In this document: positions 7,463 through 48,419 of the stretch, piece after piece
How positions within the stretch are numbered: the first letter of the stretch is position 1
How the letters are laid out: every line of letters starts with the position of its first letter
Assembly: GCA_965198005.1 (NCBI GenBank)
Contig: CBDAOI010000004.1
Location: 2,126,763-2,190,762 of the forward strand
Reading direction: 5' to 3'
Source: Spirochaetia bacterium
GTDB lineage: Bacteria; Spirochaetota; Spirochaetia; SZUA-6; Bin103
Length of the DNA stretch: 64,000 bases
The notes under the pieces: generated by a model
What the model was told of the DNA's origin: nothing
What the model saw: the letters and a program-made list of their open reading frames with translations, nothing else
Database searches by the model: none
Program-made: the position numbers and the translations under genes

Positions 7463-7535
7463 AGCCAGAAAGGGGATTCGAACCCCTGACCTGTTCATTA
7501 CGAGTGAACCGCTCTGCCAACTGAGCTATTCTGGC
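7463..7535 (-). tRNA. tRNA-Thr (anticodon CGU)
   Basis: Cloverleaf folded by hand: 7-bp acceptor stem GCCAGAA/UUCUGGC, D-arm GCUC-AGUUGGCA-GAGC, anticodon loop CUCGUAA, T-arm AGGGG-UUCGAAU-CCCCU. CCA is not encoded. Confidence 0.85.
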
Positions 7536-8392: not shown

Positions 8393-9952
8393 ATGCTGCC
8401 CAACCCGTCGTGGATCGGGTCCGCACTGAGCGATCTGCTGGTCGGAGATCCTGACCGCCACCGGCGTCCGGACTATCGGCAGGCGTTTTTCCTGGCACTG
8501 GCCAAGGTGCTTGGCGCAGCGGCCTGGGTCGACGCGCCGATCAATCAGAATGAAGTGAACGTGATCAAGACGCTGCTGCACGACCTTTCTCCACGCCTGA
8601 CGGCCCGCGAGCTGCAGCGGGTCGCGCGGTACCTCGAGGAGTCGGTCCCCGATGAACACTTTCGGGAGCTGGTGTCTCAGCTCGGCCGGTTCACGCGGCG
8701 CCGGGCGCGCCTGCGGTTTGCCGTGACCCGGCTGCTGGCGCTGCTGGCCGCGGACGGCACGCCGAACCAGCCGGAGCAGGAACTGTTCGAGCGGACCTGC
8801 GCGATTCTGGGCTGGAGTGGTGGTGATGGTGGTGGCGATGAGGAGCCGCCGGCGGCGAGCGCCCCGGGCCGCTCGCACCGGGTGCGGACGGGACTGCAGT
8901 TGGGCCGTCTCACCGGGCAGCCGGACGATGCTGCGCCACGGAGCCTGCTCGACCGGGTACGCACGGCCACCTGGGAGCGGCTGCAGGCGGGCGGCGGACA
9001 CGAGACTCCACCTGACAAACTGTACGTCCTGGCGGCGACGGTGGCGTTTCTGCGCGGCGCCCGCGTCGGGAACGTCGGCGAAGACGCGGAGCTGGTTGGC
9101 TTTACCGCAGCGGTGTCGGCGGTGCCCGACGACGTGGCGGAAGCAGCCCTTGCTGCGGCCCGGCAGTTCCCGGCGGCACCGGCCGAGCTGCCGGCGTTGG
9201 CCGCGGAGCTGCAGCGGCGCACGGATGCCACCGAGCTTGGTTCACTGGCGCAACTGTTGAACGCCATGGCCGACGGCGAGGCGGCACTGCGCCGGCTGCG
9301 TCAACTTGCCAGCCCCGCTGACCGCATGGCGGCCACCATTGACCACCTGGTGTACGGCGTGCCCGAACTGGAGGCCGGCGTCGCGTTGCTGCGCGAACAA
9401 TTCGGAGTGTCCGCCGTCTACGGGGGCCGGCATGAAGGACGCGGCACGCACAACGCGCTGCTCGGATTGGGCGGCGATGCATATTTGGAGGTGATCGCGC
9501 CGGACCCTTCCCAGCCGTCGAACCCGGGGGGCCGGAGGTTTCTCCTGGAAGACCTGGATCGGCCGCGTCTGATCACGTTCGCCGTCAGAGTTCGCGGCCT
9601 CGAGCAGCGGCGCGCACGCGCTGTCAGCCGCGGCTACGATCCGGGACCGGTGACTGCCATGAGTCGGCGGCGGCCGGACGGCGCGCTGTTGCGCTGGCAA
9701 CTGTGCCGCGCCCCGGAACCGCCGTTTGGAGGGGTCGTGCCGTTTCTGATCGATTGGGGAGCCACGCCCAGTCCCGCACACTCTGCGCCGGCCGGCTGCC
9801 GCCTGGACCGACTGCAGGTCGCTCATCCCGATCCGGACCGGGTCCGTCAGGTGCTGCACGCCATCGACGTAACGATTCCGGCTGAGCGCGGCCCGGCGCC
9901 CGCGCTGCATGCCGAGTTGCAAACCCCAAGAGGACGTGTCATGCTCCGTTAG
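8393..9952 (+). CDS. fusion protein: TerB-like N-terminal domain + C-terminal glyoxalase-like (VOC) domain
   Basis: Residues about 30-150 resemble a tellurite-resistance TerB / DjlA N-terminal domain. Residues about 300-440 carry GGRHEGRGTHNALLGLGGDAYLEVIAPDP, which matches the glyoxalase-like domain family. An Ala/Pro/Asp-rich linker sits between them. Confidence 0.55.
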   Translation: MLPNPSWIGSALSDLLVGDPDRHRRPDYRQAFFLALAKVLGAAAWVDAPINQNEVNVIKTLLHDLSPRLTARELQRVARYLEESVPDEHFRELVSQLGRFTRRRARLRFAVTRLLALLAADGTPNQPEQELFERTCAILGWSGGDGGGDEEPPAASAPGRSHRVRTGLQLGRLTGQPDDAAPRSLLDRVRTATWERLQAGGGHETPPDKLYVLAATVAFLRGARVGNVGEDAELVGFTAAVSAVPDDVAEAALAAARQFPAAPAELPALAAELQRRTDATELGSLAQLLNAMADGEAALRRLRQLASPADRMAATIDHLVYGVPELEAGVALLREQFGVSAVYGGRHEGRGTHNALLGLGGDAYLEVIAPDPSQPSNPGGRRFLLEDLDRPRLITFAVRVRGLEQRRARAVSRGYDPGPVTAMSRRRPDGALLRWQLCRAPEPPFGGVVPFLIDWGATPSPAHSAPAGCRLDRLQVAHPDPDRVRQVLHAIDVTIPAERGPAPALHAELQTPRGRVMLR

Positions 9953-10024
9953 GTAAGCGCCGGAACCGATAAAGACTGCCGTGAAAATTTTGCTGTTGCT
10001 ATACAAACTGTCCTGTGTTAACCT

Positions 10025-10067
10025 ATTGCAATAACCTGTACGTTCACCATATCGTGGGAGTGAACGT
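10025..10067. promoter_or_regulatory. candidate operator region: perfect palindrome TATTGCAATA plus inverted repeat ACGTTCAC-N12-GTGAACGT
   Basis: Read directly in a low-GC (about 45%) intergenic stretch upstream of a small gene that has an AAGGAG Shine-Dalgarno. A TATACA -10-like hexamer lies at 10000. Confidence 0.4.
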
Positions 10068-10090
10068 CGACTACTGTTTAAGGAGTTTCC

Positions 10091-10348
10091 ATGCCACGTT
10101 TTACGACTCGTCTCGTCAAGGAAGTCCAGGAACCGACGGTCACCGACAGCCTGGTCCAGAAGTACGGCGCCTATATCTCGCGCATCGACGGGAATTCCGT
10201 CGGCGTCTTGAAGTTTCGGGAGTCGGAAGACATCACGCTGGCGCGAGAAGCCCTGCGGCTTGCTGCAGAAAAGCAGGGCAAGGATCTCATTATTCGCCGT
10301 CCCCGCGGCGTTGACGGCGTGCTTGAGTTCCGATTGCGCAACCGCTAG
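10091..10348 (+). CDS. small hypothetical protein (85 aa), orphan
   Basis: AAGGAG sits 6 nt upstream of the ATG. The ORF is about 58% GC versus about 70% in its flanks. A strong downstream hairpin follows. No family recognised. Confidence 0.5.
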   Translation: MPRFTTRLVKEVQEPTVTDSLVQKYGAYISRIDGNSVGVLKFRESEDITLAREALRLAAEKQGKDLIIRRPRGVDGVLEFRLRNR

Positions 10349-10377
10349 GTCCGAGTACGCTCGCACAATCGAACCAA

Positions 10378-10425
10378 CCACCAGACAGCCCGCGCACCGT
10401 CCCGGCGTGCGGGCTGTCTGGTGGG
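10378..10425 (+). terminator. GC-rich hairpin (terminator-like, no U-tract)
   Basis: CCAGACAGCCCGC..GCAC-loop-GTGC-GGGCTGTCTGG gives a stem of about 16-20 bp immediately after the small ORF. Confidence 0.4.
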
Positions 10426-10452
10426 TCGGTGTAGTCTGCCTGCTGGGCACGG

Positions 10453-11148
10453 ATGATTTCGATCAGCAATGTCACCAAGGTGTATCGTAGCGGCACCACC
10501 GAGGTCGCCGCTTTGCGCGGCGTCAGCCTGGAGGTGGAGCGCGGCGAATTCCTCGCTATCGCCGGACCGTCCGGTTCCGGCAAGTCCACGCTGCTCAACC
10601 TGATCGGCTGTCTGGACGTCGCTACCGGCGGCGACGTGCTGATTGACGGCCAGGCGGTAGCGGGCCTGAGCCGCAAGCAGCTCGCGCTGTTCCGGCGCCA
10701 CCATCTCGGATTCGTGTTCCAGTCGTTCAACCTGATCCCCGTCCTCACCGCCTACGAAAACGTCTCCTTCGCGCTCGCGCTGACCACCCGAGACGCCAAG
10801 GAGGTGCGCTCGCGCAGCCTGCAAATGCTCAAGCAGGTCGGCTTGCAGGACATGACCGACCGCCGGCCCGGTGAGCTCTCCGGCGGCCAGCAGCAACGGG
10901 TGGCGATCGCGCGGGCGCTGGTCAAGGAGCCGCAGATCGTGCTCGCGGACGAGCCCACCGCCAACGTCGATTCCGAGACCGGCGAGGGGCTGCTGGAACT
11001 GATGCGCCGGCTCAACCGGCAGCGCGGCTCCACCTTCATCTTCTCCACCCACGATGCCATGGTGATGGACTATGCCGACCGCTTGGTGCGGTTGCAGGAC
11101 GGCCGCGTCTCCGGCGACGAGCGCCGCACGGCCGCGGCCGGGAGCTGA
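10453..11148 (+). CDS. ABC transporter ATP-binding protein (LolD/MacB/FtsE-like)
   Basis: Walker A GPSGSGKST, Q-loop, signature LSGGQQQRVAIARAL, Walker B ILADEPT and an H-loop. Confidence 0.9.
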   Translation: MISISNVTKVYRSGTTEVAALRGVSLEVERGEFLAIAGPSGSGKSTLLNLIGCLDVATGGDVLIDGQAVAGLSRKQLALFRRHHLGFVFQSFNLIPVLTAYENVSFALALTTRDAKEVRSRSLQMLKQVGLQDMTDRRPGELSGGQQQRVAIARALVKEPQIVLADEPTANVDSETGEGLLELMRRLNRQRGSTFIFSTHDAMVMDYADRLVRLQDGRVSGDERRTAAAGS

Positions 11149-12546: not shown

Positions 12547-13845
12547 GTGAAGCTGTGGCGCATCGCCGTGCGCAACGTGGCGCGCAACAAGCGCCGCTCG
12601 CTGCTGTCCGGCTCCGCCATCACCGTGGCGACGCTGTCCGTGGTGCTGCTGTTCTCGGTGCTCGGCGGCATGCTCGGCGATCTGGTGGCCACCACGCTGA
12701 CCTACGACAGCGGGCACGCCCGCGTGCGCCATGCCGAGTACGGCCGCTACGAGACCCTCAACCCGGTGCACCTGGCCGTGACCGACGCCGGCAGCGTGGT
12801 AGAACGGCTGCAGGAGCTGCCGGAAGTGACCGGCGTGCTGCCGCGGGTGCGCTTCGCCGGCGCCATCTATCGCGAAGACCGCAACCACGGCGCCTTCGGC
12901 CTGGGCCTCGACTTCGCCCGCGAGATCGAGGTGGCGCGCGACCGGCTGCCGCAGATGAGCGGCGCCGCCGCCGGCAGCGCCACCCTGGAGCAGTTCGCCC
13001 GCGCCTGGCAGCTCGAGGTGCACGGCGGCAGCCTGCCACGCGCCGGCGAGCGCGAGCTGCTGATCAGTGCGGCGCTGGCCGAGGAGCTGGGACTGGCGGC
13101 GGGCGACAAGCTGACGATCCTCACCCGCACCGCGCTGCTGAGCACCCAGGCCTGGACCTTCACGGTGAGCGGCGTGGTCGGCTTTCCGATCGGCGGCATG
13201 CGCGGCCTGCTGCTGGCGCCGCTGGACACGGTGCAGCGCTTCCTCAAGTTGACCGCGGCCGACGCGGTCACCGAGATCCTGCTCTACACCGGCAGCGAGG
13301 AGGAGGTGCCGGCGCTCACCGAAGCGTTGGCATCCGCGCTGCCGGAGCGCGATCCGGGGCTTGCCGTGCAGGCGTGGACCGACACCAACCCGATGTTCTC
13401 GATGCTCCAGGTCGCCAGCCGGATCTACGACGTCATCGGGCTGTTCTTCTTCCTGCTGGCCACCACGGTGATCGTCAACACCACAATGATGGTAGTATTC
13501 GAACGCATGAAGGAGATCGGCACCATCGCCGCGCTGGGGATGACCGGCAACCAGATTACGCGCCTGTTCTTCCTGGAAGCACTGTTCATCGGCATGGGCG
13601 CGGCGCTGCTTGGGGTGGCGCTGGGCTGCGCCATCGTGCTGCCGCTGTCGCAGGTGGGGATCGACTACAGCGCCGCCATGGAAGGCGTGGAGCTCAACAT
13701 GTCGGACGTGTTGTTCCCCCGGCTCAGCGTGCGCTCCACCGTGCTGGTATTCCTGTACTCCATTGCGGTGACCGCGGCGGCTTCCTACTGGCCGGCGCGC
13801 AAGGCGGCCCGGCTGCAGCCGGTGGTGGCGTTGCGCGCCGCCTGA
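12547..13845 (+). CDS. ABC transporter permease, FtsX/MacB-type, copy 2 (divergent)
   Basis: GTG start. Same FtsX topology, but the periplasmic domain differs from copies 1 and 3. Confidence 0.8.
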   Translation: MKLWRIAVRNVARNKRRSLLSGSAITVATLSVVLLFSVLGGMLGDLVATTLTYDSGHARVRHAEYGRYETLNPVHLAVTDAGSVVERLQELPEVTGVLPRVRFAGAIYREDRNHGAFGLGLDFAREIEVARDRLPQMSGAAAGSATLEQFARAWQLEVHGGSLPRAGERELLISAALAEELGLAAGDKLTILTRTALLSTQAWTFTVSGVVGFPIGGMRGLLLAPLDTVQRFLKLTAADAVTEILLYTGSEEEVPALTEALASALPERDPGLAVQAWTDTNPMFSMLQVASRIYDVIGLFFFLLATTVIVNTTMMVVFERMKEIGTIAALGMTGNQITRLFFLEALFIGMGAALLGVALGCAIVLPLSQVGIDYSAAMEGVELNMSDVLFPRLSVRSTVLVFLYSIAVTAAASYWPARKAARLQPVVALRAA

Positions 13846-13849
13846 GTCG

Positions 13850-15121
13850 ATGACCGCGACGCTGTTCCGGCTGGCCGTGCGCAATCTCGGCCGCCACCGC
13901 CGCCGCACGTTGATAACCGCCGCGGCGCTGGCGGCCGGGATCGCGCTGTTCATCTTCATGGATTCGATGCTGCGCGGGATGGACTCCGAGTCGCAGCGCA
14001 ACCTGGTGTGGTACGAGACCGGCTCCGGCCGCATCGTCGGCCGCGCGCAGCACGCCGAGCTGGAGCGGCCGGCCCTGAAACACGAGATCGTCGAGTATCG
14101 GCCGCTGCTCGCCGCGCTGGCGGAGCGCGGAGTGGCCGCGGCCCCCCGCATCCGTTTCACCGGCGAGCTGTTCTTCGGCGAGGGCTCGCTGCCGGTGCGC
14201 CTGGTGGGCATCGACCCGGCGCTCGATCCCGAGGTGTTCCGGCTGCCCGGAAGCGTGCTGCCCGGAGGTGGGTACCTTGAGAGCGGCGTTCCGGGGCTGC
14301 TGCTCGGCGCCTGGATGGCCGAGGACCTGCAGATCGCCGTGGGCGACTTCGTCGAGGTGCGGACCCGTACCCGCCATGGCGCGGTGCAGACCCTGGAGCT
14401 GGAGCTGGTGGGCATCCTGCGCAGCCCGAACCCCACCATCAACCGGGGAGTGGGCTTCCTGCCCCTCGACGTCGCCCAGCTCGACCTCGACCTGGAGGGG
14501 GTAACGGAAATCTCTCTCGGCGCGCTGCGCACCCGGCTCGGACGTCCCGTCCCGGTGCCGGTGGGGGCGACCCTGGAACGCGAGGTTCAGCGCCTGAACG
14601 AGGACCTGGCAACCGCCTTCCCGGGCGTGGTGGCGGTGGGCTGGACCGAGCTGGCGCGGGACTACCTGGCGGTGTTGGAGACGGACAGCGCGGGCACCAG
14701 CATCATGCTGCTCCTGGTGTTTCTGATCGCCGCGGTGGGCGTGTCCAACACCATGCTGATCGCGGTGTACGAACGGATCCGTGAGTTCGGGACGATGCGT
14801 GCGCTGGGCATGGACGACGGTGCGATTCGCGCCACGATGGTGCTGGAGGCGGGAGCGATCGGTCTGCTGGGGTCGCTGGCGGGGGTGGCAGTGGGCGCCG
14901 TCGCAACCTGGTGGCTGGTGAACTGGGGCATCGACATGAGCGGAATGTACGGCGACGTAAGCGTCGGCTACCGGGTGACCGGGATCTTCCGCGGTGCCTG
15001 GAATCCGGGGACCATGGTGGCGGCGGTGATCTTCGGGATTGCGGCCAGCATGGCGATCGCGCTGCTGCCGGCGCGCCGGGCGCTCAAGCTCGACGTCGCG
15101 CAGTGTCTGCGCCACGAGTAG
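13850..15121 (+). CDS. ABC transporter permease, FtsX/MacB-type, copy 3 (paralog of copy 1)
   Basis: The N-terminus LAVRNLGRHRRRTLITAAALA...FIFMDSMLRGMDSESQRNLVWYETGSGRIV and the C-terminus ARRALKLDVAQCLRHE closely parallel copy 1. Confidence 0.85.
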   Translation: MTATLFRLAVRNLGRHRRRTLITAAALAAGIALFIFMDSMLRGMDSESQRNLVWYETGSGRIVGRAQHAELERPALKHEIVEYRPLLAALAERGVAAAPRIRFTGELFFGEGSLPVRLVGIDPALDPEVFRLPGSVLPGGGYLESGVPGLLLGAWMAEDLQIAVGDFVEVRTRTRHGAVQTLELELVGILRSPNPTINRGVGFLPLDVAQLDLDLEGVTEISLGALRTRLGRPVPVPVGATLEREVQRLNEDLATAFPGVVAVGWTELARDYLAVLETDSAGTSIMLLLVFLIAAVGVSNTMLIAVYERIREFGTMRALGMDDGAIRATMVLEAGAIGLLGSLAGVAVGAVATWWLVNWGIDMSGMYGDVSVGYRVTGIFRGAWNPGTMVAAVIFGIAASMAIALLPARRALKLDVAQCLRHE

Positions 15122-17512: not shown

Positions 17513-17905
17513 ATGCTGCTCCGCGTGAGCGCCGTGGTGCTGATCGTGGCCGCGGCCGCGGCCGTGTGCGGGCTCATCATCGCCACGCCCTTGTGGCTGT
17601 TCGCGACTCGGGCCACCGCCTCTTACAACGTGTTCGTCGCGGTCGTCGCGGTCGCCGCGCTGGGCGGGACGCTGGCTGTGCGCCTGGCGCGCCGTACGCG
17701 CCAGGCGCACAGCGGCCGCCGCGCATTGGTTTCCGGAGCGCAGGTCCTGGCCCGCACGGTCGCGGCGATCGCAATTGCCTGCGCGCATCTGCTGGCCTTC
17801 ACCCGCTGGGGGTTGATCGCTGGACTGGTGGGCCTGCCGGTCACGCTCGGGGTGCTCGGGGTGCTCCTGTTCGGGGGCCGCCGTCCGCGCTCCGAGTCGT
17901 TCTGA
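17513..17905 (+). CDS. hypothetical membrane protein
   Basis: Four predicted TM helices with Ala/Leu/Val-rich segments. The function is not recognised. Confidence 0.35.
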   Translation: MLLRVSAVVLIVAAAAAVCGLIIATPLWLFATRATASYNVFVAVVAVAALGGTLAVRLARRTRQAHSGRRALVSGAQVLARTVAAIAIACAHLLAFTRWGLIAGLVGLPVTLGVLGVLLFGGRRPRSESF

Positions 17906-46540: not shown

Positions 46541-48283
46541 TTACGCCGCGGCCGCCGGCTCGGCCGTTCCCAGCCGCACCAACGCGTGCTGCCGCCGCGT
46601 GGTGGCGAGCCGCTGCAGCACGATCACCGGCAGCACGCCGATCGCCACGATCAACAATGCCAGCACCGCGGACTCGGCCACCATCTCGTTGCTCGCCAGC
46701 CGGAATACCCGCGTCGCCAGGGTCTCCAGATTGAACGGGCGCAGGATCATGGTCAGCGGCAATTCCTTGAGCATGTCCACCACCAGCAGCACCGCGGCGC
46801 TGATCAGGGCCGGCCGCAGGTTGGGGATCCCCACCCGCAGCAGGGCTTGGCGCGGGCGCAGGCCGGACGCGCGCGCCACCTCGTCGAAACGGGTCGTCAC
46901 GCGGCAGAAGCCGGAGTCGATGGTGTGGTAGCCCACGGCAAAGAAGCGCACCACGTAGGCCGCCAACAGCGCGGCCACGCCGCCGGTGATGATCAGTCCC
47001 GGCGACATTCCGAACAGCCAGCGGGCAGCCGCGATCAGGCGGTGATCGACCCACGTATAGGCGGTCGCGATGCCGACGGCGAGCACCGCGGCCGGAATCG
47101 CGTAGCCGACCGTGGCGAGCCGCGCCATCGACGAAACCCAGGGCCCGGACCGCAGGCGCGCCGCGTACGCCACCGTTACCGCCAGGACGATGATCATCAG
47201 CGCGGCGCCGGCGGCCAGACCGACGCTGGCGCCCAGCGCAGCGAGCGTCTGCGGGCGCAACAACTGCCCGGGGGCCGCCGCCGCCCACCAGAAGAGCTGC
47301 GCGACCGGCACCGCGAATCCCAGCAGCACCGGGGCGGCGCACGCCAGCGTGGCGCCGGCGGCCGCCCGCCCGCGCAGCCGTTGGCGCAGCAACGGCCGTT
47401 CCACCAGGCCGGGGGCGTGGTACCGGGCCCGGCGCCGCTGCCAGCACTCGCCGAAAACGATCAGTCCCACCACCAGCAGCAGCACCGCGGACAGGGCCAG
47501 CGCGGCCTGCACGTTGCCCAGCGCAAACCAGGCGCGAAAGATGCCGATGGTGAGGGTGTCCACCCCGAAGTAGTGCGCGGCACCGAACTCGCCCAGCGTC
47601 TCCATCGCGACCAGCATCACGCCGGCGACGATGGCCGGCCGCGCCAGCGGCAGCACCGCCCCGAAGAAGGTGCCGGTGGCCGAGTAGCCCGCGCCGCGCG
47701 CCAGCTCCAGCAACGCCGCGCTCTGGCGCGCGAACACCGCGCGCGCGGTGAGGTACACGTACGGGTAGACGGTGAACGCGAGCACGCAGCTCAACCCGAC
47801 CGGATTCTGGATATCCACGGTCGGGTAGGTTCCCGGAGCCAGCTTCAGGGTGTTGCGCAGGAACAACTGAACCGGTCCGGTGAAGTCGACCAGCCCCACG
47901 TACGCGAACGCCGCGATGTAGGTGGGCAGCGCCAGCGGCAGCACCAGCAGCCAGCTCAGCGCCGCACGCCCCGGGAACTGGAACGCGGTCGTCAGCCACG
48001 CCGTCGCCACGCCGATCAGCCCGGCCAGCGCGGCTACCACCACCACCAGCGTCACCGTGTTGAACAGGTAGCGCAGCAGCACCGTCTGCGCCAAGTGGCG
48101 GACTTCCTCGCCGCCCAGGGCAGTCACGTGCGCCGCCACCACCAGCAGGGGAACGCCGATCAGCCCGGCCAGGAGCGCCGGGCCGAACAACCACACGCGT
48201 GAACTGGCCCGCTGCGGGACCAGGCGCCGGGCCACGGAGCGCACTGCCGCGACGCCCGACACGGCCGAAAACGTTCTAATCAT
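46541..48283 (-). CDS. iron(III) ABC transporter permease (FbpB-like, duplicated BPD domain)
   Basis: Two tandem six-TM domains, each with an EAA-like loop. Length 580 aa. Confidence 0.85.
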   Translation of the reverse strand: MIRTFSAVSGVAAVRSVARRLVPQRASSRVWLFGPALLAGLIGVPLLVVAAHVTALGGEEVRHLAQTVLLRYLFNTVTLVVVVAALAGLIGVATAWLTTAFQFPGRAALSWLLVLPLALPTYIAAFAYVGLVDFTGPVQLFLRNTLKLAPGTYPTVDIQNPVGLSCVLAFTVYPYVYLTARAVFARQSAALLELARGAGYSATGTFFGAVLPLARPAIVAGVMLVAMETLGEFGAAHYFGVDTLTIGIFRAWFALGNVQAALALSAVLLLVVGLIVFGECWQRRRARYHAPGLVERPLLRQRLRGRAAAGATLACAAPVLLGFAVPVAQLFWWAAAAPGQLLRPQTLAALGASVGLAAGAALMIIVLAVTVAYAARLRSGPWVSSMARLATVGYAIPAAVLAVGIATAYTWVDHRLIAAARWLFGMSPGLIITGGVAALLAAYVVRFFAVGYHTIDSGFCRVTTRFDEVARASGLRPRQALLRVGIPNLRPALISAAVLLVVDMLKELPLTMILRPFNLETLATRVFRLASNEMVAESAVLALLIVAIGVLPVIVLQRLATTRRQHALVRLGTAEPAAAA

Positions 48284-48419
48284 CCGAATTCATCCAAATT
48301 CATCCGAATCCTGGTGAATAGTCATGAAGATGGATTAACTATGTCAAGTCCAATGAATAAGTCGAACGGATATTTATCGAATTTATCGAATTTATCGGCT
48401 GTTGGTGGCTCTCCCGGCC
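48284..48419. promoter_or_regulatory. AT-rich promoter/operator region with two sets of short tandem repeats upstream of the iron ABC operon
   Basis: CATCCGAATTCATCCAAATTCATCCGAAT at 48283-48312 and ATTTATCGAATTTATCGAATTTATCGG at 48380-48406 (coordinates approximate). The minus strand reads GATAAATTCGATAAATTCGATAAAT, which resembles Fur-box hexamers. Confidence 0.45.

Follow-up and report, generated by a model that had tools for sequence, protein, structure and literature searches.

A conserved gene for a small basic protein of an undescribed family, with upstream and downstream hairpins, in Spirochaetia

The small gene described here, together with its flanking elements, lies at positions 9953 to 10452 of a 64,000-nucleotide (64-kb) stretch of DNA from a Spirochaetia bacterium (GenBank assembly GCA_965198005.1, contig CBDAOI010000004.1, positions 2,126,763 to 2,190,762), which is called the window throughout. 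Its open reading frame (ORF) encodes 85 amino acids and stands between a gene with TerB and Glyoxalase_3 domains and the first gene of an ABC transporter cluster. A preliminary description of this region had likened it to an autonomous, tightly regulated module with operator palindromes and a composition suggestive of foreign origin, whose product could be a toxin- or antitoxin-like protein, a phage-derived regulator or a stress peptide. The features found at the locus are as follows (GC, guanine plus cytosine; UTR, untranslated region).

9953-10090: spacer 3' of the TerB/Glyoxalase_3 gene, 138 bp, 44.2% GC compared to 68.3% for the whole window
9996-10024, + strand: candidate sigma-70-type promoter, with a -35 element TTGCTA at 9996-10001, a 17-nt spacer ending in TGT (extended -10) and a -10 element TAACCT at 10019-10024
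10024-10033, no strand: perfect 10-bp palindrome TATTGCAATA, overlapping the candidate -10 element and transcription start
10040-10067, + strand: 8-bp inverted repeat ACGTTCAC-N12-GTGAACGT, read as a putative 5'-UTR RNA stem-loop
10080-10085, + strand: Shine-Dalgarno sequence AAGGAG, 5 nt before the ATG at 10091
10091-10348, + strand: ORF for the 85-amino-acid basic protein of an undescribed family, 59.3% GC
10373-10430, + strand: GC-rich hairpin with an 18-bp stem (10378-10395/10407-10424), a 3-bp apical stem and an outer 3 bp (10373-10375/10428-10430)
10453-11148, + strand: ABC ATPase (Pfam ABC_tran, 5.5e-36), first gene of an ABC/FtsX/FtsX(/FtsX)/TP_0789-like cluster

These agree closely with what had been described from the letters of the window: a spacer of about 140 bp and about 45% GC, a palindrome and an inverted repeat, both present where they had been claimed, an ORF of about 58% GC, and a hairpin with a stem of about 18 bp that is followed by no run of T. 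The sole discrepancy among the listed features was the distance from AAGGAG to the start codon, which had been given as 6 nt and is 5 nt.

A search of 5.8 billion proteins returned 20 homologues of the small protein with 61 to 100% identity, nearly all of which were 83 to 87 amino acids long and which shared 26 invariant columns; the named sources of these close homologues were all Spirochaetia or Spirochaetaceae metagenome-assembled genomes. Pairwise ratios of nonsynonymous to synonymous substitution rates (dN/dS) over the 85 codons ranged from 0.09 to 0.35, with a median of 0.19, which points firmly to a real coding gene under purifying selection. The preliminary description had staked its reading on coding-type conservation of this kind and on conservation of the palindromes at orthologous loci; the former is present, and the latter, as described below, is largely absent. 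The gene order is the same in every genome that carries a stand-alone copy, with a Glyoxalase_3 gene (often accompanied by an opposite-strand MR_MLE gene) followed by the small gene and then by ABC ATPase-FtsX-FtsX(-TP_0789-like), and this order was found in at least 10 distinct Spirochaetia genomes. A metagenome scan added two further loci.

The low GC of the gene (59%) and of the spacer (44%) in a window of 68% GC had been taken as a sign of recent acquisition from a foreign source or a phage. The same deficit was found in all orthologues, in which the small gene has a GC of 57 to 64% compared to 66 to 69% for the surrounding DNA. The GC at third codon positions was 0.72 in the small ORF versus 0.79 to 0.93 in the neighbouring genes, and the low values at first and second positions follow from the many Lys, Glu and Ile residues of the protein. 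In three lineages, the identity to the window was 86, 80, and 67% for the small protein, 83, 90, and 78% for the ABC ATPase, and 79, 86, and 73% for FtsX. Since the GC deficit occurs in every orthologue and the small gene has diverged in step with its neighbours, its low GC is a stable property of the gene itself and no evidence of foreign origin. The dip in the spacer has parallels in the window, which contains six 120-bp stretches below 50% GC, the spacer before the small gene being the second lowest; with dips at six places, such a dip by itself is therefore mostly a sign of intergenic DNA of the promoter type. Searches for relatives of the domain in phages, plasmids and viruses found none in PHROGs, in 50,697 phage records and 72,556 plasmids searched with tblastn, or in IMG/VR, and the PHROG matches of two fused forms of the domain (P0133 and P0034) were marginal (E values of 0.017 to 0.034). 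The context is chromosomal and of conserved order, not that of a mobile element. Recent acquisition from a foreign source or a phage is thus largely refuted, and we consider it very improbable; the gene appears to be inherited vertically in marine or sponge-associated spirochaetes.

Two Joint Genome Institute (JGI) contigs of 4230 bp (L003 and L004) have a first 750 to 900 nt, including the spacer, the small gene, the hairpin and the start of the ABC gene, that are 100% identical to the window, and beyond that point they are 99 to 100% identical to a genome of the type represented by L005. This switch would reflect an assembly chimera or, alternatively, recombination involving two populations of spirochaetes present in the same samples.

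The window protein has an isoelectric point of 10.1 and contains no Cys, His or Trp, and the whole family is basic (isoelectric points of 9.5 to 11.4) and lacks Cys and His. As had been suspected, the protein matched no family in Pfam, NCBIfam, PHROG or PADLOC, and searches of PDB sequences with two profiles returned only noise. An exhaustive profile search found 35 clusters among 1.84 billion cluster representatives, and a second profile search found 106 proteins, all of which were unnamed or called "hypothetical" apart from one with an evidently wrong JGI label. That label, "predicted acylesterase/phospholipase RssA," was attached to an identical protein and was not supported by any domain search. 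With about 100 sequences among the 5.8 billion, none of them annotated, the family is rare and undescribed. Its distant members have 25 to 40% identity and a length of 110 to 150 amino acids. They have in common the MP(K/R/Q)F motif at the N terminus, the core and a conserved (R/K)(R/K)xRG hairpin loop, with a helix and a Lys-rich C-terminal tail added. The MPxF motif is almost invariant.

Several other matches were rejected. A Toprim_C_rpt match (E = 0.021) was present in 1 of 20 members and was dropped. A Cas12f/Cas14c match of the protein P0029 (6e-4) was not reproduced in 92 family members, a set that excluded P0029, and is probably due to the bias of the Lys-rich tail. The matches to the giant proteins P0028 and P0044, which are cadherin, PPC and RTX repeat proteins, were spurious. 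In L022 (4294-6339), a radical-SAM gene is followed closely by a distant member of the family, and in P0041 the domain is fused to a radical-SAM protein; the radical-SAM gene beside the L022-24 members and the P0041 fusion partner are unrelated, and this link was set aside as a coincidence.

AlphaFold2 produced the same model, with a predicted local distance difference test score of 82, from alignments of 20 and of 92 sequences: a non-regular arm (residues 1-18), a helix (19-31), a strand (37-41), a second helix (48-62) and two further strands (66-69 and 77-82). The protein is thus predicted to consist of a compact alpha/beta core preceded by a flexible basic N-terminal arm. The weak structural neighbours of this model, all with scores below significance, included SirA-like, R3H, Smr and SpoVS proteins, the C-terminal domain of mitochondrial IF3 and an "IF3-like" designed protein. 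We take these neighbours to belong to a single class of small alpha/beta folds in which RNA- and DNA-binding domains are frequent, presumably the IF3-C-like grouping of SCOP (R3H, Smr, SirA/TusA, Alba/SpoVS and IF3-C), and treat the resemblance as a lead and not as a test. The window protein has no sequence similarity to IF3-C-like domains, and its model has a flexible arm in place of the initial strand of that fold; the sequence motifs that we associate with Smr and R3H were not seen when the protein was inspected by eye.

The MPxF motif prompted two comparisons. The family sequence MP(R/K/Q)F-x-x-R resembles MPQFNLR, the DNA-contacting strand of the Arc/Mnt ribbon-helix-helix proteins, and Pfam Arc gave marginal matches in 3 of 20 members (E of at least 0.097). 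It differs from Arc in having a 10-residue variable linker after the motif and a three-strand core rather than strand-helix-helix, and hhalign of the A3 profile against Arc gave a probability of 0.4%, with only the 7 residues of MPxFxxR aligned. For the tautomerase superfamily (4-OT/MIF), hhalign against MIF gave a probability of 0.3%, and the N-terminal segment of the family is polar, rich in Lys and Arg, variable in length and predicted to be a non-strand arm. Both relationships were rejected. For the window protein, nucleic-acid binding, as a small regulator or an architectural protein, would be the likeliest role.

The relatives also include a paralogous clade from the same kind of spirochaete, whose proteins of approximately 188 to 232 amino acids are 58 to 63% identical to the window protein over residues 1 to 85 and beyond that domain have weak Xre-like helix-turn-helix (HTH) matches and a ParS-like C terminus. 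At L021 (5001-6153), a 198-amino-acid fused, antitoxin-like gene is followed 8 nt downstream by a 182-amino-acid RES ORF, with a Pfam RES match of 3.8e-11, above the cut-off, and an NCBIfam Res_ParT_toxin match of 4e-5. In the distant member P0034, the small domain is joined directly to Xre_MbcA_ParS_C (3.1e-8). The TIGR02293 antitoxin model matches P0034 only from profile position 49; therefore, the small domain occupies the usual place of the N-terminal DNA-binding HTH. The two independent fusions clearly point to a tie between the small domain and Xre/ParS antitoxin parts, and its position as an N-terminal antitoxin module, where DNA-binding or dimerisation domains normally stand, provides the best functional hint available. 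In a further locus (L016:6001-6971), the fused gene is frameshifted and the RES ORF truncated, and this toxin-antitoxin (TA) locus is evidently decaying.

Despite the fusion to antitoxins, the window gene itself is not to be counted as an antitoxin, since its protein has no toxin-binding domain and no toxin gene lies beside it. Its neighbours are the 519-amino-acid TerB/Glyoxalase_3 gene and the ABC ATPase, and no other credible small ORF that could serve as a type II TA partner was found in 9953-10452. An ABC ATPase and not a RES gene lies immediately downstream; the RES ORF was found only after the fused paralogue of L021. No toxin-like ORF was found adjacent to the gene at the loci of the stand-alone orthologues, and neither the window protein nor its 20 close homologues matched the Xre/MbcA/ParS domains (PF09722 and PF20432), which were present only in the fused paralogues and P0034. 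Compared to RES-Xre antitoxins such as that of MbcTA (PMC6436930), the paralogues, approximately 61% identical to the window protein, carry the domain as the N-terminal 85 to 90 residues of 198-amino-acid antitoxin-like proteins, whereas the window protein lacks the HTH and toxin-binding domains, has no adjacent toxin and stands alone in a conserved chromosomal context. The suggestion of a toxin- or antitoxin-like protein thus fails at the locus itself, where no partner gene exists, and holds to the extent that a paralogous clade serves as the N-terminal domain of Xre-type antitoxins beside RES toxins. One could picture the window gene as an orphan TA remnant, either a free-standing antitoxin module that buffers RES-type toxins encoded elsewhere or what is left of a decayed TA locus, as the fused clade and the decay visible at L016 would allow. 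We regard this as quite unlikely, given that every stand-alone locus lacks an adjacent toxin-like ORF, that the Xre_MbcA_ParS_C toxin-binding domain is absent from the 85-amino-acid protein and that strong purifying selection and a stable gene order are atypical of TA debris.

The region upstream of the gene was compared to that of L019, the nearest diverged orthologue, in which the protein is 86% identical and the noncoding DNA has diverged. Only four noncoding blocks were conserved in this pairwise footprint: TTGCwA; TGTGTTA(A/G)C(C/T)T, 17 nt further on; the arms CGTTCAC(C) and GTGAACGTCGA; and the region of the Shine-Dalgarno sequence and start codon. The first two, which together form TTGCwA-N17-(TGTGT)TARCYT, were retained where the surrounding bases had changed, and we infer that they are the -35 and extended -10 elements of a weak promoter, with transcription starting near 10031. 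In the sister-clade orthologues (L005:4740-5000 and its equivalents in L011, L012, L013, L020, L017, L027 and L008), a well-conserved TTGACT-N17-TATTGT promoter was found, and between it and the small gene lies a leader of 170 to 190 nt that contains conserved blocks. For nine sequences of this sister-clade leader, RNAalifold gave -4 kcal/mol and no convincing common structure.

The preliminary description had interpreted the palindrome and the inverted repeat as operators, and their chance levels were determined by shuffling the dinucleotides of the spacer 2000 times. Of the shuffled spacers, 10.8% contained a palindrome of 10 bp or more, so that the palindrome alone is not significant; 2.5% contained an inverted repeat with arms of 8 bp or more, which makes the repeat mildly remarkable; and 0.25% contained both. 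The palindrome TATTGCAATA was not retained in L019, where the aligned bases are TAGGTCTATCG, and had no second copy in the 64-kb window; it is probably a chance occurrence or part of the promoter sequence. The inverted repeat ACGTTCAC-N12-GTGAACGT likewise had no other copy in the window, and its arms, CGTTCAC and GTGAACG(TCGA), are identical in L019, in which they enclose a loop of 7 nt and of different sequence instead of the 12 nt of the window. Neither motif was present in the more distant orthologues. Between the window and L019, the half-sites are shifted by 5 bp, approximately half a helical turn. A DNA-binding protein that acts as a dimer would hardly accommodate such a shift, which is to be expected of an RNA stem-loop. 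The stem-loop folds with -9 to -10 kcal/mol in the window and with -10.8 kcal/mol (z = -4) in L019, and the repeat appears to fit an RNA hairpin better than a dimer operator.

An autoregulated repressor module, in which the 85-amino-acid protein or another factor binds the palindrome, the repeat or both as operators over the promoter and represses it tightly, has some points in its favour. The palindrome overlaps the candidate -10 element and transcription start, the repeat is infrequent among shuffles and keeps its arms in L019, and the domain sits where antitoxins, which typically autoregulate, have their DNA-binding domains. We nevertheless consider such a module improbable in view of the chance level of the palindrome and its loss in L019, the change in half-site spacing, the absence of both motifs from other orthologues and from elsewhere in the window, and the failure of hhalign to relate the protein to the Arc ribbon-helix-helix family. 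Of the autonomous regulated module as it had been proposed, the gene's own AT-rich upstream region, the strong Shine-Dalgarno sequence, the small ORF and the strong 3' hairpin stand, and the operator palindromes do not.

If transcription starts near 10031, the leader would be 60 nt long, the stem-loop would stand approximately 8 to 10 nt in from its 5' end, and the Shine-Dalgarno sequence would remain free. A stem-loop close to the 5' end with a free Shine-Dalgarno sequence is the arrangement of 5'-end-protecting stem-loops. The Shine-Dalgarno sequence itself, (A/T)AGGAG(G), was found at the same distance from the start codon in every orthologue. A search of 9800-10600 against Rfam (E up to 10) returned only sub-threshold chance matches and no known cis-regulatory RNA.

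Downstream of the gene, whose stop is at 10348, the main stem of the 3' hairpin begins at 10378, 30 nt past the stop. The hairpin folds with -49 kcal/mol (z = -7.8), a stability reached by 0 of 200 shuffles, and no other short-range inverted repeat in the window is as long. A terminator scan reported no site here, and the lack of a T-run after the stem sets the hairpin apart from canonical intrinsic terminators. Its sequence is not conserved, yet each orthologue has a long hairpin or a strongly structured region after the stop codon, and the distant homologue at L022 has a textbook hairpin-plus-T terminator. The whole layout of AT-rich upstream region, Shine-Dalgarno sequence, small ORF and 3' hairpin recurs in every orthologue and even in the distant homologue at L022. 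Hairpins that lack a U-tract and lie shortly after stop codons are the prevailing "I-shaped" terminators of high-GC mycobacteria (PMC12288462). The hairpin of the window resembles these in being GC-rich, in its distance of 30 nt from the stop codon and in having no poly-U, and it differs in its unusually long stem and in the presence of the next gene 25 nt on; the type has been established outside Spirochaetia. We predict that the hairpin is a terminator or a 3'-end stabiliser. With the ABC start codon only 25 nt away, a role as an attenuator or operon-leader element, or else in processing or stability, would be just as conceivable.

A promoter-like sequence, TTGCGC-N16-TACGCT, the one such sequence nearby, was found by eye at 10334-10361, where it spans the end of the small ORF; its use would place the 3' hairpin within the transporter operon's 5' UTR. 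Two more long GC-rich inverted repeats, with 28-nt arms that are 82 to 86% complementary, were found at 13879-13946, approximately 35 nt past the stop of the FtsX ORF (12547-13845) and overlapping the start of the next permease gene, and at 17664-17724, and these may be hairpins of the same U-tract-less kind.

The position of the gene upstream of the transporter cluster suggests a different role, that of an accessory protein or regulator of the adjacent ABC/FtsX/TP_0789-like (LolCDE-like) transporter, with read-through across the hairpin setting an abundant small-gene mRNA against a rarer operon mRNA. Every stand-alone orthologue precedes this cluster and has the same orientation, and in the window the gap to the ABC ATPase is 104 bp, with the ABC ATG 25 nt after the hairpin and no promoter called between them. 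In the other orthologues, however, the intergenic gaps are 200 to 430 bp, and an opposite-strand ribonucleotide-reductase-like gene intervenes in L005-7 and L019. The genomes are also all closely related, such that the shared order may be plain ancestry, and the paralogues and distant homologues have unrelated neighbours. A transporter-linked role therefore seems to us doubtful.

Taken together, these results lead us to lean, by a modest degree, toward an ordinary monocistronic unit, consisting of a promoter, a 5' stem-loop, a strong Shine-Dalgarno sequence, an ORF and a U-tract-less terminator, that expresses a small basic nucleic-acid-binding protein. The weak extended -10 promoter at approximately 9996-10024 would start an mRNA near 10031, and the 8-bp stem-loop would act at the RNA level, in 5'-end protection or the tuning of translation, and not as a protein operator. 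The strong Shine-Dalgarno sequence would then drive translation of the 85-amino-acid protein, and the hairpin at 10373-10430 would end or stabilise the transcript and at least partly insulate the small gene from the ABC/FtsX operon 25 nt on. Several observations weigh against this interpretation. A consensus promoter scan made no call at the candidate promoter, which matches at 7 of 12 positions. The 5' stem-loop is common only to the window lineage and L019, with identical arms and hence no covariation, and the whole 5' UTR of the window is no more stable than its shuffles (z = +0.3 to +1.0). Instead of fully terminating transcription, the 3' hairpin may serve the ABC operon as an attenuator or as part of its 5' UTR. 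Nucleic-acid binding is suggested by charge, loop motifs and domain position, not by homology, and the 198-amino-acid fusions retain an HTH, so that the extra domain need not bind DNA there.

A more specific proposal would make the 85-amino-acid protein the free-standing form of an undescribed nucleic-acid-binding domain, whose alpha/beta core carries an MPxF arm at the N terminus and an RRPRG loop, and which in Xre-RES antitoxins also serves for DNA or RNA binding or for sensing. The stand-alone copy would then be a lineage-specific regulator that, for example, binds its own 5'-UTR stem-loop or controls the LolCDE-like transporter. We hold this to be possible and rather unlikely. Overall, the interpretation given in the preliminary description was partly supported.

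Some further features of the window and its relatives were recorded. TerB and Glyoxalase_3 form one 519-amino-acid ORF in the window (8393-9952) and two genes in L019 (4095-5819), and in more distant relatives only a Glyoxalase_3 gene was found at this position. A tRNA-Thr (CGT) gene at 7463-7535 on the - strand, between a phosphomannomutase-like ORF and a TetR gene, was the sole match in the whole window to Rfam at gathering score or to ARAGORN. The lowest GC of the window, 33% over 120 bp, was found at 48270-48400 in a gap between long ORFs. This gap contains a tandem array of three copies of TCATCCGAAT at 48280-48309 and one of 2.9 copies of ATTTATCGA at 48372-48397, either of which could be iteron-like or regulator-binding repeats.

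The elements that flank the small gene are standard ones, in the simplest reading promoter, 5'-UTR stem-loop and terminator, and the locus is of interest only for its uncharacterised protein domain, whose family is undescribed and rare; that this domain has been recruited onto RES-Xre antitoxins is a modest new finding. For the annotation of high-GC genomes, the lesson is that a palindrome-flanked, low-GC small gene is most often a conserved hypothetical gene with a promoter, a 5'-UTR hairpin and a U-tract-less terminator, and that it should not be taken as evidence of horizontal transfer or operator control. If our interpretation of the protein is true, the family would add a new small domain to the bacterial nucleic-acid-binding or antitoxin-associated modules. 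It would also provide a natural comparison of one domain in its free-standing form and fused to a RES-Xre antitoxin, which could show how antitoxins gain regulatory modules.

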